This document shows, piece by piece, positions 6,965-56,884 of a stretch of DNA of 64,000 bases (position 1 is the first letter of the stretch; each line of letters starts with the position of its first letter). The stretch is from positions 1,247,520-1,311,519 of the forward strand of contig MU004193.1 of the NCBI GenBank assembly GCA_010093605.1. The letters run 5' to 3'. The stretch comes from Lophium mytilinum. Its lineage: Eukaryota. Position numbers and translations under genes: made by a program. The notes below the pieces were generated by a model that did no database searches, had not been told where the DNA came from, and saw only the letters and a list, made by a program, of their open reading frames with translations.

Positions 6965-7557
6965 TTTGACAACGACAAGAGAGATAGGAAGGTCAGAACA
7001 CGAAAGCCGACGCTCCGCGAGCCCTGCAGGCTCTTTTGTTGGATTTCAGCAGCAGGCTGTCTTCGACGGCCTCCACGCGTCTCGATATCGATTGCTCCAG
7101 CCTCTAGTGAGGGCTGAGACTGCTCGCCTGCCTCTGGTCGGCCGACATGCCCTCCGTATTAATTGGGGCGAAGCAGATGGTTTTGGTCCCCCGCATGCAA
7201 GCCACAGCGCGTCCTCCCCACGCCCGGAGGCGGGATCCCAGTCTACTGATAGGCCCTATCAACAGAAAAGAGATGCCGGTGACCAGGCTGGGACCAATAT
7301 ACCGAAGCCACCGAGGCGCATTCCACGACAGCTCATCGCTTGTGGCGCCATAGCCTCGTTGCTTGACCGGCGTTTTTCAGCCTTGTCGCTTCATACGGTC
7401 ACTTGAGGACATTTCTAGCGCGTTTGATCATGCCGGCGAGACTCGTCTCTCAGCCTTTTCCTTTGGTTCAAATACCTTGTTGATTCCCTATCTATCGGGC
7501 CAACTCGCATCTTTTCAACGGCCTCGTGACCGTCTACCGAGCAACGTTACTTTTACC

Positions 7558-9790
7558 ATGGCCGATACCCTGATGCGGAATGAACACTCTCAGAGCTCCA
7601 TCGAATTATCTCTGCACGGGAAGTCAGGAAGTGTAGTTCAGTCTGGCGTTCATGATGCCGATTTCGACTCGGTACACAGCGACAATGGTTGGTTCGAGAA
7701 TGTAGCTCATTGGATCTTCCACAATGACCATCTCGATCGAGTACTTGAAAAGCATCACATAACAAGCATCGCGATTTCCGGCACTATTGGAATCGGGCTG
7801 TTCATCACGTCTGGCGAGCTTATTGCCGTGTCGGGCTCTGCTGGATGTGTTCTGGGTTATGCCATTGCAAGCCTTATCGTTGTTGGTGGTGAGTAGCCTT
7901 GAGAAAACTTTGTATGGCCATAGCTAACATATATCCAGTCTACCGATGTCTAGCAGAGCTCGTCAGTGTAAGACCGCTATCAGGAGCACTCATTGATTAT
8001 CCTCATACCTTTGTAAGCGGTTCGATGCTCTGCATGCTTCCAATCACTAATAGGCCATCCCAGGTTGACCCTGCCTTGGGCTTTGCGGTGGCCGTTACCT
8101 ACTGCCTCGCTCAATGCTTGAGTATGGCTGCCCTGACTTCAGGAGCAGCACGGGTCGCCGACAATTTTGGTCCCTCTGGAAGCCCACCTCTGGACAAAGG
8201 CAAGAAGACTGGTATTGTGATCGGACTCGTCACTCTTACTCTCTTCTCCAACATCTGTGGTGTCAAGACCTATGGCCGGATTGAGCGAATAGTCAAGTGG
8301 TTCAAGATGCTCCTCATCCTAGCGCTGTGCATCTTGATGATAGTCATAAATCTTGGAGTCGGAGGAGCGAGAATGAAGCCTACCGTGGGCAACTACAGCT
8401 CCGAGTATGCATTCACGCCCTATTTCAATCCGGCAGGCTTCAACGATACAACCGCTCATACTCCTCCGATCGGCAATACTCAGGGTATTCCTGGAGGCGG
8501 CGGACGCTTTCTGGCAGTCTGGTTAGTCATGTTGCTCTTTTCGCCACACCTTCCGCTAATCGTCTTTCCCAGGACATCCGTGACTGTTGGCATGTTTGCG
8601 TGCATGGTAAGCAGTCACTCTAGTACTAGTTTTACAACCCTTGCTAACGAATATCTTAGGGCGGTGACATCGTCGTGGTGACTGCAGGAGAGGCCCGCAG
8701 ACCTCGAAAAGACCTGCCTCCTGCGACGCGATTTATGTATTGGGTCCCATTGGGACTGTACTTCATCGCGTCTCTTCTCGTAGGATTCAACATCAACTAT
8801 ACTGATCGCGACCTCTTCCGGATATACTCCCTCGAGAACACAATTACATCTCACTCGCCATTCATCATCGTTGTCAAATCGACGGCTATCAAAGCCCTAC
8901 CGGACATTCTGAATGCTTGCTTCTTGGTATCAGGCTACACTGCCGCTAATACCGCACTGTATGTGTCGAGTCGTACCCTCTTTGCGACTGCGCAACTCTA
9001 CGGCAACACCTTCATAAAATCCACGCTCGGCAAAACCAACAACGGTCACACACCCATTGCAGCAATCATATTCTGCTCGTCCTTCGGGTTTCTTGCATTG
9101 CTGGGACTAGCAGACACTTCTTACAACCAACCCATTTTATCCCTATCTGCGTTCTTCACTGGAGCCGTCGCCTGCGTCTACGCTAGTGAATGCATCGCCT
9201 TCCTCCGGTTCAAAGCAGGGTAAGCACCCTATCGCATTTGCCACTCACTAGATACTAACATTGACAGTCTTGACCTCCTCCACCAACGCCAAGTCTACTC
9301 CCGAGACCGCCCACCGTACACCACAAAGCACTATCGCGCCCACTGGCAGCCCTGGTGGGCATATGTCGGCCTTATGGGCTCCTGCCTGATCGTCTTCTTC
9401 TCCGGGTGGCCCGCAATCTATATCCTGCATTCTCGTCACCACTTGGCAGCGGACAAGCAACTAAAAACCAATGTCCAACTTGCAGCAGACCTGATCGGAG
9501 CTTATGCAGGTCCTATCGTGTTTTTGACCCTCTATCTTGGGTGGAAGTTCTGGCATGGAACGAAGCTCCGCCCCATTTCTTCCCTGGGCGTTCCACTGTA
9601 CGTCTTGCAAGAGACATTTCCAGGTGATGAGGAGCCCGATGCGAGCGGGCGCCTCCCAGACGCTGAGAACCTACGGAGGAGAGGCGCCGCGAGAAGAGTG
9701 CCGGGTCAGCCTGGGCCGTATGTGCAGCGTGAGCCTACTGTCCAACGAATGAAGTGGTGGTTGCGGGAGGCTTGGGGATTGATGAAGTAG
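7558..9790 (+). CDS. Amino acid permease (APC/YAT family), multi-exon
   Basis: HHITSIAISGTIGIGLF TM1 motif, VDPALGFAV, TAGEARRPRKDLP, SPFIIVV, ANTALYVSSRTLF; many hydrophobic helices. Confidence 0.9.
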
Positions 9791-23295: not shown

Positions 23296-26200
23296 CTATT
23301 TCCAGCTCTGCTGTCCACCCGCCCCGCTCGTCTGACTTGCATTTGGCGTCCCAATCTGCGATTGTCTCTGATTCCCGTTATATTGCGTGGGTTGCACGTA
23401 CTGACTTGACTGCGACGTTCGCGCCGAGTTCTGCGAGCCTGGAGTACTGTTGTACGCCACGTAGCCTGTCTCTTGCCCTGTATATTGCGGTTGAGGAACT
23501 GGAGGCGATCGGTAAGGGGGTTGCGGCGGACGAGTATCGAATGGAGCGATTTGTGAAGGAGAGTGCCGCGTTTGCTGTGGCGGAGCTGAATATTGCGGGC
23601 TGCTGTGGTAATTGCTTTGCGGAGGGTTCATACTGTATCGATTGGGCAGAACGGATGCGCGGTTCGTGTCTTCAGCTGGGGGCGAGGCTCTGTATCCCGC
23701 TTGTGGCATCTGGTAAGAAGATTGACGCTGCGGTTGTTCATAGTGGCCTGGAGATCCATCGGTCTCGGAAGGTTGGGAACGATGACGGCCATACATGGAT
23801 GAGTCCTGGCTGACTTGTCTTGGAGGAAACGGTGGAGCGCTTCCATGGGCAGGAGGAGTGTTTGAGTACTGGCGCTGAGGGCTACCGTATCCTTGATTGG
23901 GTCGTACCTGAGGGCGCTCTTGAGAATGCTGGCTACTAGTAGGGTACTGTGATGGCCGGGGCTGTGGAGGATTATTGACAGAGCCTTGGTACGGAGCATA
24001 AGACTGGCCCAAAGGTGCCGTTGGGTAATTTCGTTGAGATGGAATGTTGCCATAAGGATTTGTTCCTAGGTCCGGCCTTAAGTCTCGTTGTGGTAGGCTT
24101 TGGCTTGCGTATGCGGGCATACGGTAGGGCTCAGTGGTAAAAGCTGGGTTCAACCGCGTCCCCGCTGTGCTTTCTGGACGATTTTGCGGCGGGCCGGTTG
24201 TAAGGCTCTGCGGGAGGTGGCCAGGGGCTACCGGCTTGCGTTTAACAGATCGAAAGCGCTTGACACTCGGATTGCGTTTCACTCGAGCCATTGCCTCCTG
24301 AAGCAGCTTTTCAATCTTGGCTTCATCGCTCACTTCATCCTCTAGCTGAAGGTCTGTGACACTTCCTTCAGTATCTCCATCGATGGAACCCTTGTCATCA
24401 CCCTCCCACTCTTCCTCATCTTCTGTATCAGGGTCATCATCACTGTCTTCGGAGTCGGAGTCATCAAGATCTCCCTCATCTTCATCATCGCTGTTGTAAT
24501 CGGCAGGCGCGTTTGCCTGGAGCGCCTCTGTAGGTAGCCCAAGGGTGGGATGTCGGCCGTATACGCTCGCCCCGGCTTTGAGCAGTGCTTCAACACTTGC
24601 CGTTTGTCTGTTATAGCACGACTCCACGAGTGCTTCGTCAAGCATTCGATGAGCAGGTTTCAAGTCCAGTAACGTACCCAGCACATCCTTATGACCTCTT
24701 ACAGCAGCAGCATTGAGAGCGTTCCCATAAAGGCCACCTTTGTTCCTGAAGTCAGCACCATGATTTAGGAGTTTCTTCACAACGTCAACTCGATTAACGC
24801 ATGTAGCAGCCTGAATCGCAGTGCCGTATTTCCCTCCACAGTAGTTCACGTCCACAGCTTTGTCGAGTAAGACATCGATGAACTCCACGTCAGCCTTTAC
24901 GGCAGCGGCTTGTAGCGCGCAACCGTATTTCCCACCTTTAGTGTGAACGCTCGCTCCGCGGTCGAGCAGTAGCTCAAGACTACCAAGATTGTTTCCATAG
25001 GCAGCAGCCTGAACTGCCGAACCTAAACGTCCTCCCTCAAGCTTTACTTCAGCTCCGTGGTCTAAAAGCAGCTGTATGCACTCTTCATTATCTGGCTTCG
25101 ATGCGGCGGCAAGAAGGGCGTTTCCGTGAGCGTCCCCTTTAAGATTTACCTCCGCACCATGAGATAAAAGCAGTTCCATGATGTCTTTGTGTCCCAAAGA
25201 AGCTGCTGCTTGAAGAGGAAAGTCATGCTCCCCGCCTCGGTGATCGATGGTGGCCTCGTGGTCAATCAGCTCTCGCACGACTTCAATATTACCTGAGATG
25301 ACAGCAGCTTGTAGTGCAGAACCATATTGGCCTGCCGTCAACCCAACATCTGCACCTGCGTTCAGTAGCATTCTGACAGTGTCAATGTCGTTACTAGCAT
25401 CGTAAGCGGCAGCTTGCAGTGCTGTGCCGTAGGTGCCGCCAATAGCATTGACATTTGCACCTGCTTTGAGGAGGATCTCACAGCACTCTTTTTCGCTTTC
25501 CCCTGCGGCAGCATGGAGAGCCGTTCCGAGCTCGTCGCTAGACATGTGGATATCGGCGCCTCGGGAGAGAAAGAACTCCAAGCCTTCAGTGTCACCCATC
25601 CATGCTGTATTGATGAGCGCGGTCGTACCCTTGTCGCAAGTAGCATCGATGTCGGCGCCCTTGTCCAAAATCGCCTCGAGATCTTCCTTCACCAAGTTTA
25701 GTCCCGCAAGGGAGATGACCGGGTGATTGTCCTCTCCGCCACGTACATTGACATCGGCATTGTGTTCAAGAAGGACCGTTGTCGTCTCACTATCTCCCTC
25801 GTCTACCGCTGCGATGATGGCGTAACTATGGCAGCCGCCCTCCGCGTTAACGTTGGCGCCATGATCCAGTAATATTTTAATCGTAGAGGCATCTCCGGTC
25901 TTACAAGCGGCTTGTAAAGGGTTCCCATATTTTCCGATGGGGTCGGTATTGACTTCAGCACCATAGTCTAGGAGCAGCTTGACATTGTCGGAGTCGCCAT
26001 GGAAGGCCGCAGCTTGCAAGGCCGTCCCGTAATCTCCTCCGCGCTTGTTCACATCTGCCCCTTTCTCGAGCAGAACCTCAAGAATCTCTTTAGTGCCATC
26101 GTGCGCTGAGGCTGTTAGGGCATTGCCATACCTACCGAAATGTTGTCAATGGGTGTTACTTTCTTGTGGTATTGGAGTACTTACTCAGCTCCCTCGGCGT

Positions 26201-29200
26201 TCGGGTCCGCACCAAATTCGAGAAGAAGCTTGACAGTCTCGGTATGTTCGTGGTCGGACGCATGATATAGCGCGGCATTCAGCTTATCTTTTGGAATGCC
26301 CCGCTGGAGCAGGAGATCCAGGACATCGTTACGTCCATAGGAAGCTGCTAGCATGAAAGCCTTCTCATGACGCAGGGTTGGAGCGCTGTCCAAAATCGTC
26401 TTGACAACCGCAGCCTTGCCATTCTGCGACGACGCTTGCAACGCTTGCTCCAATACGGTGATCCGGGCTTCTTTCTGTACGAGCGCCTCGACCACCTCGA
26501 CATGGCCGTATGTCGCGGCAGCTGTCAGGAACGAACCGTACCTCGTCATGCTTTTGTTCGGACTCCACCCCTTCGAGAGCAATAGCTTGACGACATTTGC
26601 ATGACCTCTACGGGAAGCAGCACCGAGTGCGCTTCCGTACTCATATTCCTCATCGGGGTCAATATCCGCGCCCTGATCTACCAAGAGCTGAACGCTTTCT
26701 GGGTCGCCGTTGTACGCGGCTATGTTGAGCGCTCTGCGATGCTCCCCTCCAACCATGTTCACCATTGCGCCGCGCTTCAGAAGAATCTTCATGGTTTCGA
26801 GATGACGTTCCTCAGCTGCTGCGTATAGCGGTGTCCCCCAGGAGTCTTCGTCTGCATTGACGTTGGCATCTCGGTCGAGCAAGCATTCAACAACTTCATT
26901 CCGCCCTTCGGATGCTGCTTCCCACAGTGGAGTCACTTCGCCTTCCTCGCTGCATGCATTGACGTCTGCACCAGCACCGAGTAATGCTAATACAATCTCG
27001 TAACTGCCATTGCCGCATGCATAAAACAGTGGCTGAAAACCAAGCGAGTCCTCCTTGTGGACATCGGATTCCCAGCCGTAAGTCAAAAGATAATCAACGA
27101 ATGCTGAGAATCCAGCGATCGTAGCGATGTGTAACACAGATACGTCTGCGTGTTCAGACATATAGTGGAGCTGGTCGTTCGCGCCCCACCATGCCTGTCT
27201 TGCCGTCGATTCGTCCTCCCAAAAGGCGTGGTCTTGGTGTACCCCAAATTCTGCGATTACATCCACAGGCGCGAGTTTAGCGTGTTCTATCCAGTACTTG
27301 ACAGGGTAGTTTAATGCGTCTTCCCAGGAATCAGCATCGATGATGCCTGTAGTGCGGCTGGTAGGACGTTCGGTCTGAGGCACCGATTCAGCTTCGTCCT
27401 CATCAGTGTCGTTATTACTCTCTGAATCGCTATGATCTCCGCAGTCGCTCTGAACTCCTTCGGACTGGGCAGCTGGTGGGTCGGTTTGCTCGATCGGCTC
27501 TGTGAAGGAGACATTCAATCAGCAAGATCTCTGTGTCAAAAAGGAGAAGGGAAAAGAACGAAATCCCGAGCTTGCTTGCTCCTGTTGCAGCTGCACGTAT
27601 CGACTATTGCTCCAATGTGCCCTAGACTGCCCAAAAAAAGGTAGACCAAATTGCAAGACCTGGAAAGTGTGCGATAGGGTGTTAAAGTAAGAGCTATTAC
27701 CTTCTCGAGAGTCATCTGGATCTTCTTCTATCGCTTGATTTATCGTTTTTGCATCCTCACTCTTTTCATGTCTCTCGTAGAGATACTCTAGACACCGAAG
27801 TGCGATAATGCCATGATGCATGTCTTTCAGATCTAAGCCAAGATCATCCTGAGAGTAATGCTCCAAGTGTTCTTTAGCCGACATATCAACCCAGCCCACG
27901 GTATTAGTGTCCTCGGCAAGATTGCTACCACGGATAGTGAGGAACGCGCCACATCGAATGATGTGGGCTTTCAGTGTAGCGTATTCTTCCCAGTGTTCGC
28001 GAGGGAGACCAGCAATTACGGCAAGCTCTCGCATACTGGGGGTTTCCTGGGAGAGAATCATGCAACGTAAGATCTCCTTGGTGTATTCGATGCCTTCGGA
28101 TTCTGGTTTCAGCACCCTTCCACGGATGTGCTCATACAATTCGGTCAAGCCGTAGGGGAGCGATTCCAATAGGGCTCGAAATTCGACATACGAGGCCTTC
28201 CCCGATTCTTGCGCATTCTTCAATTCTTGTATCACAAGAAGAACATAGATAGCGTTGCCTTCCGCGCGAGAGTGAATATGGCGCTTCACAAAGTAAGCCA
28301 ACGAGGCTACTAAACCGAGCTCGTCCACCATTGCTGAGATGCGCTCTTTTAGCTCGTCTTTAACGTGGACCGAGTTCTCCGAATCGTCCAGGTTTATTTC
28401 GAGAGCTTTGTGCTTCAATGCCTTCTCAATGTTGGGTCGACTAGACCTGCTCAACACCATCCATTTGATAGGATTTGATTGCACATCGCTCTCAGGAGGA
28501 ACACAGGCGGCCGAGATATCGTCCGTAAATTGTAAAAACTCAGCCAGAGAGTCTTGAGAGAGAAGGTCAAGGCCGTAGATAATGATGTAGATGCATCCAA
28601 AGGAGAGATCCCTCGCCATTGCTTGCAAACCGTCCCAAAGAAAAGACACCTTCGATAGCGACTCGTTGTCAAAATCTTGGGCGCTGCCCTTCTTGCCTTT
28701 CTTCGAGTCGGTAAGGAGATGAACAGCTAGGTCTTGGTTCCGGTCAATTATTTGACGGACAATGAGTTTGAGTAGTCCCAACAGAGTTCTGCGTTTCTCG
28801 TCGCCTTGATCGCAGAAAAAGGACGCAACTATGGGGCCAGCCTCGTCTGACCTTTCATCCGGCTTTTCGTCCAAGTCTTTGGCTGACTTTTGAAGGCTGT
28901 CAATGACAGATGACGCGATCGTGTCCTGGCCTGTGCCAGCCCTGCCGTGTACCCAAAGAAGCTGGGATGTATGTTGTTCTTTCCAATTCTTATAACTGTC
29001 TTTTAAAACAACCCAAGAGTTCTTGGTTGTCATTTGATCACCCGGTTTTTCTTTTTCGGTGGCTTTTGGGTATTGGAAAGTGCCTTTCATCGCGGCATCT
29101 ATATCTGAGAACCCCTTCCCAAGCGCATCAATGATGGCATGATATGTGCGGTCGCCAATAAGGGCTTGCCGATTAGCTGCACCGAGAACGTGTTAAAAAG

Positions 29201-33200: not shown

Positions 33201-36200
33201 TCAATCATGCAACCCAAACGCCTTCCGCAGCATCGGGAACCTCTTCTTCTTCCCCGTCCTCCCCACCACAACCTCTTTCCCTGTCTTCGGATCAATTCCC
33301 ATGCGCGCCTCGCTAACCGCAGAACTATACCGCTTGTTCAGCGTCGGTCTCAGGCTGCTCGGCCCCTTCGAACCGCCCTGGGGGAACACGCCGTCCGAGC
33401 TCGCGGGCCGCACCTCCTGCCCGATCGCCGGGGGTTGGGGCAGCGGCCACGAGTCCGAGGTGGAGCGGCCCCACTGCGGCGTATTGCGGCGCTGCAGCTT
33501 GGGGCTGCGGATGCTGCCGGGGCTCTGCGGCGTATCAGGGGAGGCGGCGTCGAAAACTTTCTCGTCTTCGCCGATGGGGGTGAGGGGGCGCTGGGCTTGG
33601 GGTTGGGAGCGGACGGTGTGTGGAGGGGGTTCAGGGATGGGCAGAGGTTGGGCAGCAAACTCGCCGGGTTGGGAAGCGGACTGCTTTTTCTTGCCTAGGC
33701 CGAAGAAGCCGCGCTTGGATTTCTCTTTCTTCGTGGTTTGGTTGTCTGACGGGTCAGCGGTGTGCTTGCCGTCCCGGAGAGTACTCGATGCGAAGGATGG
33801 CTGGCCGTTGGTCGTTGTCCCTTTCTCTATGTCCTTGTTAGCAGCGGGTCTTTCTGTGCTGCTGTCTTCGTCGGAGAGATCGGTGGAGTCACCATCTTCT
33901 TCGCCTGGCTTCCTCGGTATACCGCGAACAGGGGCTAATCCAGATGGTAGGGTGTAGTCGTCGTCTTCATCGGAATCCGCGAATCGGCTCTGGAATCTTG
34001 CCGGCCTATCGTCGTCTTCGTCACTGGAGTCGGCGAAACGGCTTTGGAAACGCTTTGCAGGTTTACTTGGAGCCGGCGATTTAGCCTTCGATTTATTGCC
34101 AAACCCACCCATTTTTGTCCCCGGTTTCTCAGATTGAGCTCTTAGGGTAGACACGCCTGCATCGATAGACCCATTACGGTTTGAGTTCCCTATCCCCCTA
34201 CCTCTGGGTGATAATGACCTGATACTGAAGCGAGACGACTTGAGGCCTGCGGGGGCCTCAGGCGTTGGCGACGAGGGTCGCATCGAAGTCCGCATGGTGG
34301 GCGGTGGCGACAAAGGCTGCGCATGAGCAGATTGTGGTCTCATGGTCGGCGCTGGAGCTGATGGAGCAGCTGGTCCCCCTCTCATAGATCGTCGCATAGA
34401 GTATCTCTCCCCATTCGATCCTTTCGGTCGGCGCCGTTCCCTCTTAAAGCTACTGTCTGATAAGTCCGAATCGTCATTCGAAAACGTGCGGGCTAGAGGA
34501 GCCATTTGAGGTGGCTTTGCGGAGGTGCCCAGTGGTCCGGACGCCGATTGAGGGCGATTCTTGGCGGGTACTGCTGCAGGTGGTATCACCCTTTTCTGTA
34601 GGGCACCCCTGGGCTCTCGACTCGCCGGTGGGCTGCTGTATCTCGACGCAGCTAGACCAGGTTCGTTCCGCATGCCTGATCGCATAGTATCACCACCTCT
34701 CATGCTTTTCTTCATGTGGGGTTCTGAAGCGGAAGACGCGTTATTTCCTTGGAAACCAGGCCCTGATCGCATAGTCTTTCTGATGTGAGGCTCAGCTGCC
34801 GTCGATTCTTGTGCTTGACGCATCGAGTTCTTCATTGCAGATTTCCGTGGTTGAGCAGCCGCTGGTGGCGGTCCTGTTCGCGACGCGCCACCACTGGATA
34901 CGTTCTTCTTCCTCGGCTTGGCAGCTTGTAGGATGGGTACATTAGATGATGTTGCTACTGCTGTTGGCGGTTCGGGTTTTGCTTCCCGTCCCAGGCCTTT
35001 TCGTTGCGCCTGGGTCAGGCTAGTCCAGTGATCTCTTGCATCGTTCCAATCGGTTTCCTCACGAGAAGGGGGAGTGGCATTATCTTGTAGAGCCCGACTT
35101 GCGTTGGATGGTGCGGGCATGACGGGACTATCTGGGGGAGGTGTAATAGCAAGACCTCTAGCGGGTTTCGTAATAGGGCTATCCACAACAGCGTCAATTG
35201 AAGCAAACGGAGCTTCGTCATCTGAGAAATCCTCTGCAGCATCACTGTAGATACTGCTTGTGTCGCTATCGGGCTCCTCTTGAACAACTGTTAACTGTTC
35301 TTCTTGGCTGACTACCGGTTGCGAAGGGATGATAGCAGGAGGGGGAGCGACGGGTTCGATCGTTTTCAGTGGTGTGGATGATGAACTGTTGGTTCTTCGT
35401 TCAGCGTTCGCAGGCTCTGTATTCTTGACGATGGCGCGAGTCTCCTCAAATTGGTCAGGAAACCCTCCGGGCATCATGTACTTCGGTTCTGGCGCATCCT
35501 CAGGTCCGGGGGTAGCAGGAAGAATGGCAATGTCCGGAACCGCCATCTCTTCGCGCTTGGGTGGTGCCTCTAATGTTGCTGGTGCAGTGATCGGCCCTTT
35601 ACGTGATGATACTGGTCCTTCGTCTTGAGTAGCCACGCTCTGTTCCGAATCGGAGACATAGCCTGAGCCCTCGACCGATGTTACTTCCGGGGGCACTGGG
35701 TCTAGCAAATTGCTCTTGCGAGCTGCTTCTTGGGGCGAAGAAGAGTCTGTCCTCTTCTTGGATGCGAAGTCATTGGCGATAATATTGGCCAGCGCGTGGT
35801 CATTTGAAGACTCAAGTGGCTCTGCAATCGTACTAGCAGATGTCGACATCGAAGACGGGATGGTTTCAGTGACCTTCTCGGCCAGATCATCGTCGTCGTT
35901 ACGTCTCGAACGTTCACGAACACTTCCAAAAGATGGCAATGCCGGGCGCGGCGTCATGACATCATCAAGGTTGTCGTCTGGCGAGGTAGGCGACCGAGAA
36001 CTCCACTTGGAAGTGTCAATTCCGGTTGGCGACGACGGCGATGTTTCCCCATAAGCCGAAGTTCCTGCGATGACGGGACCCTCATCGAAACTAACTCGCA
36101 CGTTCTTCTTTCTTCTTGGAGTGGACCTGGAGCCGTCATCCGACATATTATCTGAGCCTTCGCTGGGAGCTCCCCTGGCAGCGATGACTACAGGCGAGTT

Positions 36201-37823
36201 GTTCCTGATAGAGGAAGAGGGCGAGTGTTTGAGAGCGGACTTTGCTGGTGAATACGACCTTGGTGGTGGGTGGTGCTTGAATCCATTCGGCAATTCGACT
36301 GATGAAGTCGCAAAATGTGCCGACCGTCCTGGACTGAGAGACTGGGGTCGATCACCACGTATACTGCCATTCTTTCCCGCAGATAAGGTGTTGGTCGGCG
36401 TTTGAGTCCTCGGTTGTGCGGGAGTACTTGGTGGACCAGTCGATACGGGCGTAGTCTGAACCTGCTCCCTGTTCAGGCCAGATGAACTAGGCTCTAGTCT
36501 CCGGCTGGTATTTGCATCGTGGCCACCCTGTTCTTGATCGCTTTCTCCATAGTCCTCGGAGTTTCTTCTAGCAAGGAGGGCTCCAGCTCGGGTTTGGAAC
36601 CCCGAGGATAGGTTTTGTCGCATGGGAGGGCTCTGGGGTCGCTCTTGTCGTTGGACTGGTGGACTCTGTGGCCGCTCCACAGCATGGTAAACCGGTTCTT
36701 GATACGCCGGTTGTGCCACCTCTCTCTGATAGAACTTCCGCGTGGATGGGTCGTACACCGCTCCCGGAGATTTGGGGTCGACGGCTTGAAGCCCAGATGA
36801 GGTAGCAGGTCGAGTATACTCGTCCACGGCCGTTCCCGTAGGTCTAGCTCCCATGTGGCCGCTAGCCAGGCGAGCCCCTTCCACTCCGGCAGAAAATTGG
36901 CTCCTGTTCTTATGTACTGGCATTTCCGGCGCGTTCCGAATCGACTCTTGGGCGAAAGAGTTTCTGATACCAGCTCCGTCGGAAGTCTTCGGGCGCGTAG
37001 CCGAGTCGTCTCTGAAAGTCTTGTTTGCAACGACTGGCGAACCAAACCATCCGCTGTGACCAGCTCGTCCCGGGGCAACGACAGGAGAAGGCGTCGGACT
37101 AGCCGGCGGAGACATGGGCCTGGAAAAGTTGACAGAGGACCGAATACTGTTCTCGCGATCGACTTCCATGACCTGAGCTAGATTGCTCCCACCACGAACA
37201 TGGCCGCGGCCAGCCGCAGGCATCCCTCTATCAACACTAACACCTCTCCCACCTCCTCTCCTCGGCGAGGCTCCGCGGAAGACCGGTTCGAGGCTGGAGG
37301 CGCGCTTCTGGGAAACAGGACTCGGGACATCACGTGGAATTGCAGGCACTGGAGGCGCGTTAGGATCCGCCTCGACTACGGGGCTGCTCCTATTAGGCGA
37401 AGATGTGCGAAATGTGCGTTCACTCATCGAGCCAGAGCTGGACTGCCTACGCAAGCCGGGCGCCTGATTGCTTCCAACGCTGCCCTGTGACGACGTCGAA
37501 CCCCTCCGAATCATCCGCTTTGTCTGTATATCGCCAACCGGCGTTGGCGATGTCGCGTGGGTGCGCAGGGCTGCCGCGGCGGCGGCATTGGAGAGGGAGG
37601 CATTGGGGACGCGGTCTTTGAGGAACGCTTGACTCGCGGCTAGAGCGGCTGCAGAGCTTGGAGCAGTGGGCTGACGGATGGGCTGCATGAGGAGATGGTG
37701 TTAGTGTGATGTTTCGAAGCATAGCTTGGACAGGCGCAAAGGAGCTCTCATGAGGTTTGTTCCTGCCGACAGGATAAAGAGGGCACTCACCGGATTAGAC
37801 GCAGCGCGCCGGCGATGAAACAT
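33201..37823 (-). CDS. Large Ser/Pro/Arg-rich disordered protein, possibly Seg1/Sle1-like eisosome protein; short exon 1 (37823-37791)
   Basis: 1495-codon ORF plus upstream exon MFHRRRAASNP. N-terminal Ala-rich helix and basic C-terminus GKKKRFPMLRKAFGLHD. The Seg1 resemblance is inference. Confidence 0.75.
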
Positions 37824-46982: not shown

Positions 46983-47827
46983 ATGATGTCCCTAAGATCC
47001 CTCGTCGTCCTCGCGGCCACCTGTGCCATCGCCAGCGCCCACACAGTCATCACCTATCCCGGCTGGAGAGGCAACAACATCCACACCAACGGCACCGAGC
47101 CAGGCAGCGTTGATATCATCCCGGGCTCGCTGGGCATCACCTTCGACAACGGCACCCTGGGCTTTCCCTACGGCATGCAATGGATGTATCCATGTGAGCA
47201 CGCTTCGCACACCTCGAACCACCTCAGTTGCTAATGACCTCCAGGCGGCGGTATGCCCACCTCCCGCAACCGCACCAAGTGGCCCGTCGGCGGCGGTGCC
47301 ATTGCCATCCAGCCCGGATGGTTTCCCGGCCACTCGCTGGCCCTCATCTACCTCAATATGGGCTACGGCAACGAGCCGCTGAATATGTCCCACGCCATGC
47401 TACCTGTTTTTCAAATCGCGGGTCCTACGAATGTCGAATACCCGGGCACGATCTGTCTACCGCAAGTGCCTCTACCCGCGAACTTCACGCCGGCGATTGG
47501 CGACAATGCGACCATTCAGGTTATCGAAGCCGCTCAGCACGGAGCGTCGCTTTACAACGTGAGCAACACCCACTATACGAGGGCAGCGATGAACAATAGC
47601 TAATAAATTCGCAGTGCGTCGACATCACCTTCGCCGACCCCAAAGACGTCGAAGAAGTCACGCCCCAGAACTGCTTCAACTCCTCCGGGGCAAACGACAA
47701 AATAAGCTTCAACAACGTCTACACTTCGGCCCTCCAATCCGCAGGCTTTGCATCCGTGCGGCTAAACACATACGCATCCACCCTCGCGCCGTCGCTGTTT
47801 TCGCTCGCGGCGTGGATCTGGTTATAA
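46983..47827 (+). CDS. Secreted, probably GPI-anchored copper-binding BIM1-like (X325) protein, two introns
   Basis: Signal peptide ends ...IASA giving mature N-terminal His (HTVITYPGWRG). YPCGG, RTKWP, ATIQVIE...LYNCVDITF motifs; hydrophobic C-terminus. Confidence 0.78.
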
Positions 47828-51697: not shown

Positions 51698-52698
51698 ACT
51701 GTATGTTTTTAGGAAGGGAGTTGACTTAGCTTGAATGGACGTGGAGACAGTGGGGAGGTCTGCAATTTAATGTGTCCCCCACGGGTTGGGGGCGGACATG
51801 CAGGCAGCATTCTGGGGTCACGTGAAGAGGCGCAGATGCTGGCGATGAAACAGGCTGAGTATTTACGCAGCTGTGGAGGATCATCCCTGGAATTACAAGA
51901 TACCGCTGGTCAAAGCGGAAAGCACGCAGGGAACGTTTATATAAAAAGGCCTTGAATATGATGCGGAGCAATTGCATGGCCCTTGATAAGTTACCCTTAG
52001 ATGGTAAATAAATTGGTAGCCCGTTAAACCGCAGCACCGCTGTTCGATGTAGGCTCCAAGACTCAAACATTCCAGACGTGAATGTGAAGACTTGAAGCGT
52101 GGGAATCAGAGATGTTACGAAGGTGACATCTTATGCTTATGTCTGGAATGCGCTGTTAGAAACAGCGAAGTGTTCTCATTTCTCTTTCCAGCTAGTGTCA
52201 CCGAACCAGCGTGACGCTGTCATAAACAGCTCTGTTAAGTGCCGGTCCTTGGTCCCAATATAAAGATTCGAAGCTTAGAGATGAGATGATCCATAGGGGT
52301 GTAGCGACCGAGCTGCGTCAGGAAGCCTTTGACATACGAAATATCTCATTGTCGGTAAGCAGATTTCCAGGGTAGGAGTTGATAGTTATGCGGCTGCTGT
52401 AGTGCGGCAATGACGGAGCAGGTAATACGGTGATGACGGCAATGTATAATGGCTTTGTCGCTTTGCGAAGTTAAGAGATTGAGATGTAAAGATGAAGTGT
52501 GAATGAGGGGCGCCATTGACGTTCCAGGGATAGTCTATGCGAGGAGTAGCTCGCCTCTCGCTAAGCACACCACACACAATCAACGATCAACGTTCACTCG
52601 AAAAGTGTGGAGCTTGAAAGGTTCTTTCATAGGTAGTAGAGCATTGTGTGAGAGATCATATTGCGTAGTATTTCTGCAGTTTCCAAAATAATCAATCC

Positions 52699-52823
52699 GC
52701 ACTGTTGGTCCAGCGGTAGGATTCTTGCCGTAAGAATTCCCCTACAGCAGCGTAATTTGTTCCCTCTTACTAATATACATTAGTTCCAAGCAAGAGGCTC
52801 GGGTTCGACTCCCGGACAGTGCA
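52699..52823 (+). tRNA. tRNA-Gly(TCC) interrupted by a 54-nt intron at position 32/33
   Basis: Acceptor stem GCACTGT/ACAGTGC plus discriminator A. D arm GTCC-AGCGGTA-GGAT; anticodon stem CTTGC/GCAAG; T arm TCGGG-TTCGACT-CCCGG. Removing 52730-52783 gives a 71-nt cloverleaf with loop CTTCCAA. Confidence 0.88.
52730..52783 (+). other. Spliceosomal-type (GT-AG) intron within the tRNA anticodon loop
   Basis: 5' GTAAGA, branch-point TACTAAT (52768-52774), 3' TAG. Same signals and size class as mRNA introns in this window. Confidence 0.75.
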
Positions 52824-52853
52824 ATGTCCGTCAGCTTATAGCTGATCTAGAAC

Positions 52854-52871
52854 TTTATTTTTTACATTTTT
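52854..52871 (+). terminator. RNA polymerase III oligo-T terminator of the tRNA gene
   Basis: TTTATTTTTTACATTTTT about 30 nt after the discriminator base. Confidence 0.7.
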
Positions 52872-53471
52872 CTGTGTCCAGCCTGTCAGGTGGTTGCGTA
52901 GTGAGAAGCCACCCTTTTTTTGCTCTTTGGGGGGGGTTTTCTTCCAATACGAGATGCTGAAAGCAAGGCACGCATCGTGGCGCTCACACGTCCACCCTCC
53001 TCCACCACCTCCATTCCCCGCACAAGGCAACGACCCTCATCAGCTGCCTCTTCCGCCATGAAGAGGCAGAAAGGTTGTGTGTTCCAGAGCTCATCACTCT
53101 AGGGTCTAGTCATCCAATGAGCGGACGTTGCCAACATTTACAGCTCGCTGACATAGCTGTGAAGGGAAAGCCGGGGCGAGAAATAGGCCCCTGTTATCAT
53201 GTGGCTTCGAGATGGCTTTCTCACAGAACCTTCGCGCCCTCCTGTGGTGTGACACGGAGGCTGAAAGGCTGAGAGCCATCTCTCCAATTGTTTCATTGCG
53301 TGTCACTTACTTGATTCTTATTCGCGTTGTCCGCTCTTCACTTCATTTCCTGGATAGTTTTCCAATATAAGTCTTCATCCTTCACATTCTTACAGTTCTT
53401 TCGTACCTAAGTCAGTTTCTTGAATCTTTCGCTCTAGGGGTTGCTTGAAGCCACAGCTCCGTTAAGACACC

Positions 53472-54906
53472 ATGACCTCCCCTCCCCCCTCCCCACCAAA
53501 AGACCGCCTCAAAAGACGTCTCATAGTCCTCTGCGACGGTACGCTCATCCTTCCGCCTTCCCAAATCCCAACACCACCTCCTCCCCCTCAACGCCCCTAA
53601 GCCACCCGCAGACACATGGCAAGACTCCACCTCCGACTCCTCCACCGCCGCGCCCACCAACGTCACCCGCTTCGCGCGCGCCCTCAGCCAATGGGCCCCC
53701 GCCGCCTTCGGGGACATCCAGCAAATCGTCTACTACCAAAAAGGCGTCGGCTCCTCACCTCTCGACCGCCTCCTCGGCGGCGCCGCCGGCATCGGCATCT
53801 CCGCCAACGTGCGCGCTGCCTACGGCTTCCTCGCCAATAACTACGCCCCGGGTGACTCGATCCACTTCGTCGGCTTTTCGCGTGGGGCATACACGGCACG
53901 AGCCGTCGCGGGACTAGTCGCGGCGTGTGGGTTGCTTACGAAGAAGGGGATGGATAGTTTTCCCGAGCTGTATAATCTGTACTACAAGGAGCATGGGACG
54001 GATGCGCAGATGACGGGGGAGCAGAAGAGGGTGTATGGGGAGAAAGAAACGCGGTTTTTGAAGACGCTTACAGAAAACGGGTTGCTGGAACCTAAAGCCG
54101 CGCTGGCCATCGAGGTCGTCGCGGTCTGGGATACCGTCGCGTTCGACCTAACGTGGTTCTCGACGAGCTGGATCGCACGGCTGCTGGGGCTCGCGCCGGA
54201 GCGGTTGGAGTTTCGTAATGCGGAATTGAGTGCGAAGATAAGGTATGGGTTTCACGCGTTGGCGTTGGATGAAACGCGGAATGCGTTTCGGCCGACGTTG
54301 TGGCAGATGCCGAAGGCGGATGGCGGCGCGGGAGATGGGGAGTGGAGATTGAGGGAGATGAAGCAGTGCTGGTTCTCTGGGAGGCATTCAGATGTCGGGG
54401 GCGGGTATTCGCAGCGGTGGTTGTCGGATATCACGCTCGCGTGGATGGTGGCGCAGTGTGAGAGGCGGGGGTTGCTGGCGTTTGATCAGGGGTATTTGCT
54501 GGATCTCGGGTTGCCGCCTGCTGAGGGGTTAGACGGGCAGTGGGGGACGGCGAAGGGGGAGACGAGCAGTGACAAGAAGGGGATGACGTTGGTTGTGGAT
54601 AAAGCGTCGAGGACTTTACCGCTAGTAAGTGGGTATAGGAAGCCGATGAGTCTGAGAGGTACGAACGAGATGATTCATTGCTCTATCGAGGACCGCCACT
54701 TTGGGAATAATACTGGGAGTAAGGGGGCGGTGAGATGGCCGTGCGGTGCGTTGACTGGAGATCGAGATGGTGGAAAGTGGGAAGTGAAAGGGAATTCAAA
54801 GAAGTATCTGGCCGAGGATAAGGTGGACGAAATGGAGCAGACGTACAAGGGGAGAGTAAGAGCCCCAGAAAACTCGTGCGTCGGAAAGTTGCATCTCCGC
54901 AAGTAG
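53472..54906 (+). CDS. DUF2235 (Tle1-like alpha/beta-hydrolase) family protein, intron 53539-53611
   Basis: KRRLIVLCD, PTNVTRFARAL, QIVYYQKGVG, AYGFLANNYAPGD, GFSRGAYTAR, VWDTV, HALALDETR, WFSGRHSDVGGG. Confidence 0.88.
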
Positions 54907-55232: not shown

Positions 55233-56468
55233 TTATCGGATATCCACCCAGTCGTAACTCGGTAGCTCGAAGCCACTCTCGTCATCAGCCGGGAGAAGCT
55301 TGTATAGCTTAGTCTTGCTCACAAACCACAAGAGCGAGTCTCTCAACCACAACGCCCAACTCGTCTGCGGAAATGCCCCTTGCGGGAAGAAGGGCGGGCC
55401 ATCCTCACTCTTCGTATACAACGGGCGGTAGACCTCCTCAAACCTCTCTAGAGCCCGCGGAACGTCCTCGCTGCTCTGTATCTTCGAGAGCTCTCCGGCC
55501 AGGATGTACGCACTCTCGATAGCTAAAGTCGTTCCCACTCCGAAAGTGGCATGGGCTGCGTCTCCCAGCACGAGCGCGCGTCCGTTCGTCCATTTCGGAA
55601 GCTTCACCTGCGCAGCCCTGCTCATGTAGAAGTCTTCAGCGGCGTCCATCCCTTCCAGCACCCGCTTTGCTTCCCATCCTAGGTTTCCGAGGTACTCGTG
55701 GCAGATGCGTTTTTGGGCTTCGACTCCTTTGTCTAGCGCAGCTTCGACGGCCGGATCCTGCTGCCCGTGTGCTGGCGTTGTAATACACAGATACGCCCCC
55801 ACAGTAGCAGGGTTTCGATGTGGACGCAGCATGATACAGAGCCCTTTGGGGCGGTTGTACCACTGCCACATCTTCGGATCAGTCGGCCGGCTCGGTATGC
55901 TGAAGAAAGCGATATACTGGCCAAGAAAGTCGTAGCTGTTCTTGGTGATGTGCTCGTCCAGGATCATGTCCCGAGTCCTCGACGTGCCCCCGTCTGCAGC
56001 GACAACCAGATCGAACGTGGCGCTTGATCCCCCATCAAAGGTCACGTTCACGTTCTTCTCTCTCTGGTCGAGCGATTTGATCGAATCGCCGTACACGTAC
56101 TTTACATTGCTCAAGCTCTCAGTAGTCTCCATGAATAGGCCCGCCAGGTCTGCCCGTAGGATTTCGTACTCGGCAGTGAAGGTGTCGCCGCCTTTGAAGA
56201 GAGCGAATGGCTTTCCTGAGGAATCCAGAATCACTGTGGCTTCTTCTGTCGTATTCCGGGCGCGGACAGCCTCTTCCAAGTTCATTCTCTTCACGATTTC
56301 GATTCCTGGACCACGGATGTCGATCGACTGGCCGGTGACCCTAGGGACGGATGATCGCTCGATGATTGTGATGGCTGCATTGAGACGTGTTCTAGAAAGC
56401 CAATATGCGAGACAAGGTCCGGCGATACCTGCCCCGGATATGAGAAATTTCAATTTCGTTGCGGACAT
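55233..56468 (-). CDS. FAD-dependent monooxygenase (FAD_binding_3)
   Basis: LISGAGIAG, GQSIDIRG, EYEILRADL, DLVVAADG, LVLGDAAH motifs; no intron. Confidence 0.9.
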   Translation of the reverse strand: MSATKLKFLISGAGIAGPCLAYWLSRTRLNAAITIIERSSVPRVTGQSIDIRGPGIEIVKRMNLEEAVRARNTTEEATVILDSSGKPFALFKGGDTFTAEYEILRADLAGLFMETTESLSNVKYVYGDSIKSLDQREKNVNVTFDGGSSATFDLVVAADGGTSRTRDMILDEHITKNSYDFLGQYIAFFSIPSRPTDPKMWQWYNRPKGLCIMLRPHRNPATVGAYLCITTPAHGQQDPAVEAALDKGVEAQKRICHEYLGNLGWEAKRVLEGMDAAEDFYMSRAAQVKLPKWTNGRALVLGDAAHATFGVGTTLAIESAYILAGELSKIQSSEDVPRALERFEEVYRPLYTKSEDGPPFFPQGAFPQTSWALWLRDSLLWFVSKTKLYKLLPADDESGFELPSYDWVDIR

Positions 56469-56792
56469 TTTCTTTGTCGTCGAATGGACGTTTTTGTTGG
56501 ATGTTTTTCTCTCATATATGGGTAAGGAATATATATAATATATTAGCATTGAGGTCGATGCTTAGAAGCTTGTATCGTTCAAGCATCAATAGATTACCAG
56601 AAGTGGTTTGTATATCGTCATAGATTTCCGTTGGCTCGTAGAGTATTTCCTAATGCAGACAAGCGGCCTCTCTTTCTTAGCGACACGAACGCGACGCGAA
56701 AACGCAAGGCAGTGACTTGTAGAATTGCGCAGGTACATTTAATGAGCAGAATGCTTTTACCGCCTGTCGCTTGTAGCAATACTCTGCGAGAC

Positions 56793-56884
56793 CACTTTCG
56801 GGACCGAATTATGCACTATTGGGACCGAACTATGCACTACCGGGGTCGAACCATGCACTATCGGGGCCGAATTATGTACTATCG
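56793..56884. repeat. Degenerate 21-bp tandem repeat, ~4.4 copies
   Basis: CACTTTCGGGACCGAATTATG / CACTATTGGGACCGAACTATG / CACTACCGGGGTCGAACCATG / CACTATCGGGGCCGAATTATG / TACTATCG. Confidence 0.85.

Follow-up and report, generated by a model that had tools for sequence, protein, structure and literature searches.

Can a tRNA be matured by the spliceosome? Textbooks keep two kinds of nuclear intron apart, namely those of tRNA genes, which a protein endonuclease removes from a fixed place, and spliceosomal introns, which belong to Pol II transcripts and to a small number of genes for snRNA and rRNA. This separation would break down if a tRNA gene that is conserved, and apparently present in one copy, did depend on the spliceosome. 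A candidate for such a gene lies in a 64-kb stretch of fungal DNA (the whole of which is called the window here, all positions being given in its numbering), where an earlier note had described an intact tRNA cloverleaf, with A- and B-box sequences and an oligo-T terminator, that is interrupted by an insert resembling the intron of an mRNA.

Anatomy of a split tRNA-Gly(UCC) gene

The observation of a split tRNA-Gly(UCC) gene is confirmed. With introns allowed, ARAGORN called tRNA-Gly(tcc) [52699,52823] i(32,54) under all four option sets, and both this call and the cloverleaf of the joined exons agree with the earlier description of the gene. Exon 1 (52699..52729, + strand, 31 nt) comprises the 5' strand of the acceptor stem, the D arm, the 5' strand of the anticodon stem and C32, and exon 2 (52784..52823, + strand, 40 nt) comprises U33, the anticodon UCC, A37, A38, the 3' strand of the anticodon stem, the variable loop, the T arm, the 3' strand of the acceptor stem and the discriminator A. 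Neither exon differs at any position from the homologue described below. The intron (52730..52783, + strand, 54 nt), which has U2-type GT-AG signals, falls between tRNA positions 32 and 33. Since the bases at the two junctions differ, its boundaries are unambiguous and the cut cannot slide.

When the two exons are joined, ARAGORN without introns finds a tRNA-Gly(tcc) of 71 nt whose cloverleaf is complete and whose anticodon loop reads C-U-UCC-A-A, the same loop that the earlier note had obtained by GT-AG removal. The insert itself is as that note described it, i.e., 54 nt with GTAAGA at the start, TACTAAT within and TAG at the end. Also in line with it, reading the insert from the sequence as an intron at 37/38 gives the loop C-G-UAA-G-A, with G33 and the anticodon UAA, which would be non-functional. 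tRNA finders had been expected to stumble on this gene, and the two used here do: default ARAGORN reports 0 tRNA genes in the whole 64-kb window, and Rfam gives no tRNA match at the gathering score in the 64-kb window or at E values up to 10 in 52550-52950. Because default ARAGORN and Rfam both miss the gene, the tRNA sets of such fungi may wrongly seem to be without tRNA-Gly(UCC).

The gene has the layout of a Pol III type 2 (tRNA) gene, with internal A and B boxes, a downstream oligo-T run and no terminator inside. An A-box-like element, TGGTCCAGCGG (52706..52716, + strand), and a B-box-like element, GGTTCGACTCC (52802..52812, + strand), were read from the sequence, and we take them to be the A and B boxes by the general consensus of these elements. 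The likely Pol III terminator is TTTTTT at 52858..52863 (+ strand), 35 nt after the end of the tRNA; it is the first run of five or more T, and no run of even four T occurs from 52691 to 52857. As a signature of Pol III, the lack of T runs within the intron was discarded as uninformative; of the window's 23 ORF-bridging intron candidates, only 4 contain four or more T in a row.

The trailer contains a hairpin (52830..52846, + strand) of 7 bp with a 3-nt loop (-7.7 kcal/mol, z -2.34), and a structured trailer of 35 nt is unusual for a tRNA gene. The downstream neighbour of the tRNA gene is a 459-aa ORF (53527-54906, + strand) with a T6SS Tle1-like (DUF2235) phospholipase catalytic domain (E 9e-73). 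Elsewhere in the window, an ORF for an NPHP3_N NTPase (27519-29192) adjoins a 949-aa ankyrin-repeat ORF (23296-26145, - strand), and the two look like one fungal NLR-type gene (23296-29192, - strand). This pair of ORFs and the style of the introns point to a filamentous fungus. A tandem repeat at 56793-56884 (period 21, 4.4 copies, 81% matches) lies just outside an FAD-monooxygenase ORF (55233-56561, - strand), and an open frame of 1,499 aa (33201-37700, - strand) matches no Pfam family at E values up to 1e-5.

Signals of the insert and tests against other intron classes

The insert carries a donor of the form GTRAGN, a branch site of the form CTRAY and an acceptor of the form YAG, as in U2-type introns, and its removal restores the cloverleaf. 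The 5' splice site is GTAAGA (52730..52735, + strand), of which the homologue has the same GTAAG and a sixth base changed from A to C. The branch-site motif TACTAAT (52768..52774, + strand), whose predicted branch A (52773) is followed by the final base of the 54-nt intron at a distance of 10 nt, and the 3' splice site TAG (52781..52783, + strand) are unchanged in the homologue.

As a test of chance, 54-nt segments on both strands of the window were searched for a GTRAG start, a CTRAY motif whose A precedes the end by 7-20 nt, and a YAG end. Three of the 127,892 segments pass, the insert being one of them, and block-shuffled windows contain a mean of 0.5 such segments; therefore, the probability of a chance match is about 4e-6 to 2e-5 per fixed segment. 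The places of the three signals agree exactly with the boundaries at which the insert must be cut to give back the anticodon loop.

The insert also resembles the window's own mRNA introns in size and signals. This comparison concerns the ORF-bridging subset only; a loose GT-AG scan of the window yields 1,453 candidates with no clear consensus, and a looser three-signal pattern is not commoner in the window (49 and 53 matches) than in its reversed sequence (54 and 58). An amino-acid permease gene (7354-9787, + strand) has three introns of 48-53 nt, and its exon translations match consecutive parts of PF00324. The candidate introns are 7889-7938 (50 nt; GTGAGT, AGCTAAC with the branch A 11 nt from the end, CAG), 8607-8659 (53 nt; GTAAGC, TGCTAAC with a distance of 12 nt, TAG) and 9220-9267 (48 nt; GTAAGC, TACTAAC with a distance of 9 nt, CAG). 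The second of these is supported as a real intron because the ORFs that flank it align with successive stretches, 70-185 and 208-382, of the Pfam amino-acid permease profile, which has 470 positions; Pfam support is confined to it, the first and third being placed by ORF continuity alone. The tRNA insert, at 54 nt and a GC content of 0.37, can be set beside the permease-gene introns (48-53 nt, GC 0.38-0.44), and its branch distance of 10 nt beside the 9-12 nt of the short mRNA introns in the window (CTAAC or CTAAT). GTAAGC, the donor form of the homologue, is the donor of two mRNA introns in the window too. Two further candidate introns, 47194-47244 and 47559-47614, were dropped since their frames are mutually inconsistent. 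As to a repeat origin of the tRNA intron, no other copy was found within the 64-kb window, where the best further match is 11 nt.

By the features of tRNA-endonuclease (TSEN/EndA) introns, the insert does not look like a member of that class, since it lies at 32/33 instead of 37/38 and lacks a bulge-helix-bulge motif. Of the pairs that such a motif would need at the two cuts, 2 of 4 can form in the central helix and 0 of 4 in the helix that follows the 3' bulge, and shifts of up to 3 nt give no helix of 4 bp either. Cut sites in 3-nt bulges were seen neither in the fold with the cloverleaf enforced (-29.3 kcal/mol) nor in the free fold (-38.9 kcal/mol). In the free fold, exon 1 and the 5' part of the intron form a hairpin that is not conserved, because two of its pairs are lost in the homologue (52735 and 52743) with no compensation. 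A self-splicing group I or group II intron was also rejected: no Rfam intron family matches at the gathering score, nor at E values up to 10 in 52550-52950, and 54 nt is far too short for an intron of either group.

A homologue in soil RNA, copy number and the search for spliced RNA

Four sequencing runs (X1, X3, X12 and X13) were aligned to 52300-53200 at 90% likeness. The homologue comes from two soil RNA libraries. In X12, one of 7,415,661 records aligned, a contig of 199 nt, and in X13 three of 5,538,564 records, one of which is a contig of 158 nt. Both contigs span 52697-52833 in unspliced form, and they belong to another organism, because their sequence outside 52697-52833 is unlike the window. 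Each has 12 substitutions and one single-base deletion, and the changed places, 13 overall, all lie in 52735-52776. The exons and near flank are therefore changed at 0 of 83 places, compared with 13 of 54 in the intron (Fisher p = 2e-6), and the sequences firmly indicate that the two exons have been under purifying selection from the gain of the intron onwards.

Within the intron, the core signals GTAAG, CTAAT and AG are changed at 0 of 12 places, vs. 13 of the 42 other intron places (p = 0.05, with one other lineage), and the motifs defined a priori, GTAAGA, TACTAAT and TAG, at 1 of 16 vs. 12 of 38 (p = 0.08, again with one other lineage). If GTAAG is taken together with the last 21 nt, the counts are 1 of 26 vs. 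12 of 28 (p = 0.001), a figure that counts for less because this partition was picked after seeing the data. Statistically, the retention of the splice signals fits a spliceosomal reading to a modest degree, because the homologue amounts to only one other lineage, i.e., two near-identical contig variants from two studies, perhaps of one campaign. The unspliced form is the only form found in the RNA libraries, and soil RNA libraries can contain DNA.

The trailer was compared by eye. Behind 52833, 30 letters of the X12 contig line up with the window without gaps, and 12 of them differ, eight of these in 52834-52842, the inner part of the trailer hairpin. All three inner pairs (52834/42, 52835/41 and 52836/40) are changed on both sides and still pair, so that selection seems to act on the long trailer and on its hairpin. 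TGATC, AGAACTT and T6 recur either in place or shifted by one base, the T6 run of the homologue coming one base earlier than that of the window, after the same AGAACTT, and the X12 contig extends about 27 letters beyond this run. Both soil contigs begin 8 nt before the tRNA (record position 7 = 52697 in each), and this common start hints, though only weakly, that the 5' end is a defined one or that there is a short leader. It is our guess that the trailer and hairpin might delay 3' processing or the folding of the tRNA until the intron has been removed.

For copy number, we turned to the source DNA run X1, in which one of 129,617 contigs aligned, a contig of 17.6 kb that passes straight through the split gene. 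The X1 contigs contain no second gene copy with an exon 2 at least 90% alike, the filter used being one that drops some records. Since partial matches as short as 32 and 38 letters were picked up in X13, a second copy with an exon 2 at least 90% alike would be expected to be visible in X1. The gene is thus apparently single-copy, as far as X1 is suggestive of it, and in a single-copy gene splicing would be obligatory. One of the short X13 matches, record 4, represents an intronless Gly(UCC) gene from a different organism; there, the same 5' strand of the anticodon stem and C32 directly abut exon 2.

The spliced junction was found in none of X1, X3, X12 and X13. Such libraries capture mature tRNA poorly, and therefore its absence from them says nothing either way on splicing. 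X3 may be a transcriptome of the same species; its contigs are letter-identical to the window in the flanks, end at 52551 and resume at 52958, so that the tRNA is uncovered. These two positions may be the ends of two neighbouring transcripts (X3 contigs, 52300-52551 and 52958-53200), and the gap might mean that the tRNA lies outside polyadenylated transcripts, an uncovered stretch proving nothing by itself. Between the tRNA terminator and 52958, where the X3 contigs resume, there is a second hairpin, GGTGG...CCACC, in 52881-52935, then T7, a G8 run and TTTTC; Rfam returned only chance-level matches for this region (L20 leader, E 3.6; rdlD, E 8).

Wider searches were made with a 25-nt word from exon 2, which has 0 matches in a metagenome contig collection, so that exon 2 itself is absent there, and with a pattern made of the end of exon 1, GTNNG, a gap of 35-65, and AG with the start of exon 2, which has 0 matches in metagenome, genome and viral contigs. 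The pattern zeros are uninformative on the spread of the intron, the metagenome collection being without exon 2 and the genome and viral collections without fungi. Among 20 listed sequencing runs, 18 hold less than 0.35 of the sampled words, and 17 have shares of 0.05-0.11; the runs in the latter range belong to organisms C, D and E and to metagenomes of air, straw, soil and plants, and a word share of this kind is no evidence of distribution.

Removal of the intron and its place among known systems

Taken together, the gene is very probably functional, and we think it fairly probable that it is a working nuclear tRNA-Gly(UCC) gene of a filamentous fungus from whose transcript the spliceosome removes a U2-type intron, as it does from U6 of fission yeast. 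Judged from the sequence, the spliceosome is the best-supported route of removal, and we hold to it with reasonable, though clearly incomplete, confidence. We infer the identity of the polymerase, the removal by the spliceosome and the order of the processing steps. The earlier note had proposed maturation by the spliceosome; the anatomy it gave is right and its proposal is supported in part, with the lack of a bulge-helix-bulge motif, the likeness to mRNA introns and the homologue in its favour, and with no spliced junction in the four runs.

In such a scheme, transcription would start from the internal A and B boxes, probably by Pol III, and give a transcript that begins some 8 nt upstream of the tRNA and extends as far as the T6 run, 35 nt downstream. 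GUAAGA would be recognised by U1, and UACUAAU (branch A 52773) by branch-point factors and U2. Two transesterifications would then join C32 to U33 and release a 54-nt lariat, after which RNase P, RNase Z and CCA addition would complete the tRNA. Against this scheme, Pol III transcripts are spliced only in exceptional cases. The 5' splice site and the anticodon stem are 1 nt apart, and GCC, with which the exon ends, adds no pairing with U1; therefore, the anticodon stem would have to open for splicing to occur.

Alternatively, the intron could be excised by a TSEN-type endonuclease and a ligase acting at a non-canonical position, its spliceosomal likeness being incidental. The eukaryotic tRNA endonuclease measures the distance to 37/38, and the cuts here are off that distance, whereas cutting at it would give the G33/UAA loop. 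Excised non-canonical tRNA introns do exist in nucleomorphs and in Cyanidioschyzon merolae (PMC4090602, in the part available). Moreover, the conserved 3' part of the intron pairs with exon 2 in predicted folds (CCUCUU/AAGAGG and ACUAAU/AUUAGU), and so structural constraint could also explain its conservation. However, there is no bulge-helix-bulge motif at the cuts, the hairpin between exon 1 and the 5' part of the intron decays in the homologue at 52735 and 52743 as noted above, and incidental likeness would require all three splice signals to have arisen at the chance rate given earlier, so that we regard endonuclease cleavage as improbable. We give equally little credence to a dead or non-tRNA relic that was disrupted by an insertion (e.g., of a stray intron copy), with GGA decoded via other genes. 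Such a relic would agree with the failure to see a spliced product in X1, X3, X12 or X13, with the silence of default ARAGORN and Rfam, and with the view of reviews that odd insertions in eukaryotic tRNA genes are usually pseudogenes (available text of PMC4090602); the count of Gly(UCC) genes also spans the X1 contigs only, and another gene could lie elsewhere in the genome. Against this, the exons and near flank are unchanged over 83 places while the intron differs at 13 of 54 and the outer flanks are unlike the window, which contradicts a neutral relic because its exons would have drifted too. The distance to the terminator is preserved as well, and so is the trailer hairpin, although three of its pairs are changed on both sides. 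With the exons unchanged in the homologue and no second copy from X1, a dead gene is therefore unlikely.

The gene might also work in such a way that the spliceosome acts on a longer host RNA made by Pol II and the tRNA is cut out of it later. Recruitment of the spliceosome is normally coupled to Pol II, which speaks for such an arrangement, and the X12 contig, by running on behind the T run for about 27 letters, could represent read-through or a longer transcript. By contrast, the A box, the B box and the T6 run, the distance of which is conserved, are in keeping with a Pol III unit, and the start of both soil contigs 8 nt before the tRNA hints, if weakly, at a short leader; we judge a Pol II host transcript to be unlikely. 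Returning to spliceosomal removal from a Pol III transcript, a more far-reaching version can be put forward tentatively, which we think possible but are inclined to doubt. According to it, this fungus and its relatives would have a single tRNA-Gly(UCC) gene, transcribed by Pol III and dependent on the spliceosome; decoding of GGA would depend on the splicing of its transcript, and the trailer with its hairpin would keep the precursor from being folded and processed at its ends before the intron has been removed. If true, nature would have four ways to remove tRNA introns, with the spliceosome added to the protein endonuclease and to the group I and group II routes.

The earlier note knew of no spliceosomal intron in a tRNA gene, and we likewise found no description of one in the full-text literature, outside of which most subscription journals and supplements lie. 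In the parts available, PMC12530127 and PMC10946435 treat tRNA introns and spliceosomal introns as unrelated classes, PMC3879985, PMC8216456 and PMC11782384 contain nothing relevant on spliceosomal introns in tRNA genes, and PMC5855946 contains nothing on them. An mRNA-type intron in a non-coding RNA gene is known, then, and one in a tRNA gene would be the first as far as the literature searched extends.

Among tRNA introns, the insert shares with the canonical 37/38 intron that it interrupts the anticodon loop of a nuclear tRNA, and differs from it by its position at 32/33. Non-canonical eukaryotic tRNA introns are listed only for nucleomorphs and C. merolae, where the bulge-helix-bulge motif matters, in the accessible portion of a 2014 review (PMC4090602), in the text of which the word stem 'spliceosom' has 0 occurrences; the accessible portion of PMC8450103 handles non-canonical tRNA introns only for archaea. 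According to these portions of the two papers, the introns of nucleomorphs, C. merolae and archaea resemble the insert in lying off 37/38, with the anticodon stem-loop included among their positions, and in being missed by standard finders. However, they are bounded by bulge-helix-bulge motifs and cut by an endonuclease, whereas the insert has GT, a branch site and AG, and no bulge-helix-bulge.

Spliceosomal introns in fungal non-coding RNA genes have been reported for the U1, U2 and U5 snRNA genes of Rhodotorula hasegawae and for ascomycete rRNA genes (available part of PMC5855946). These are likewise spliceosomal introns in genes of this kind, but their host genes are transcribed by Pol II or Pol I, and none is a tRNA. 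In S. pombe, the single U6 gene is a Pol III gene with an intron which the spliceosome excises and which holds the B block inside it (same part of PMC5855946), and mRNA-type introns in U6 of S. pombe and other fungi were described earlier (Tani and Ohshima, 1989, 1991; Canzler et al., 2016; all as cited in the available part of PMC5855946). Like the fungal U6 intron, the insert described here is a short GT-AG intron with a branch site in a small, structured non-coding gene of the Pol III type, and as in U6, the gene is single-copy (here apparently) and its exons and intron are each about 30-50 nt long. Unlike U6, the host RNA is a tRNA and no component of the spliceosome, and the case is known from its sequence alone. 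The argument made for an origin by reverse splicing is not directly applicable, because a tRNA is not at the catalytic centre of the spliceosome; if true, the gene would offer a clean example of intron gain in an RNA away from the spliceosome active site. It would also, if true, provide a natural test of the spliceosome on a tightly folded RNA with exons of 31 and 40 nt, and would stand beside U6 as a second Pol III substrate of the spliceosome.
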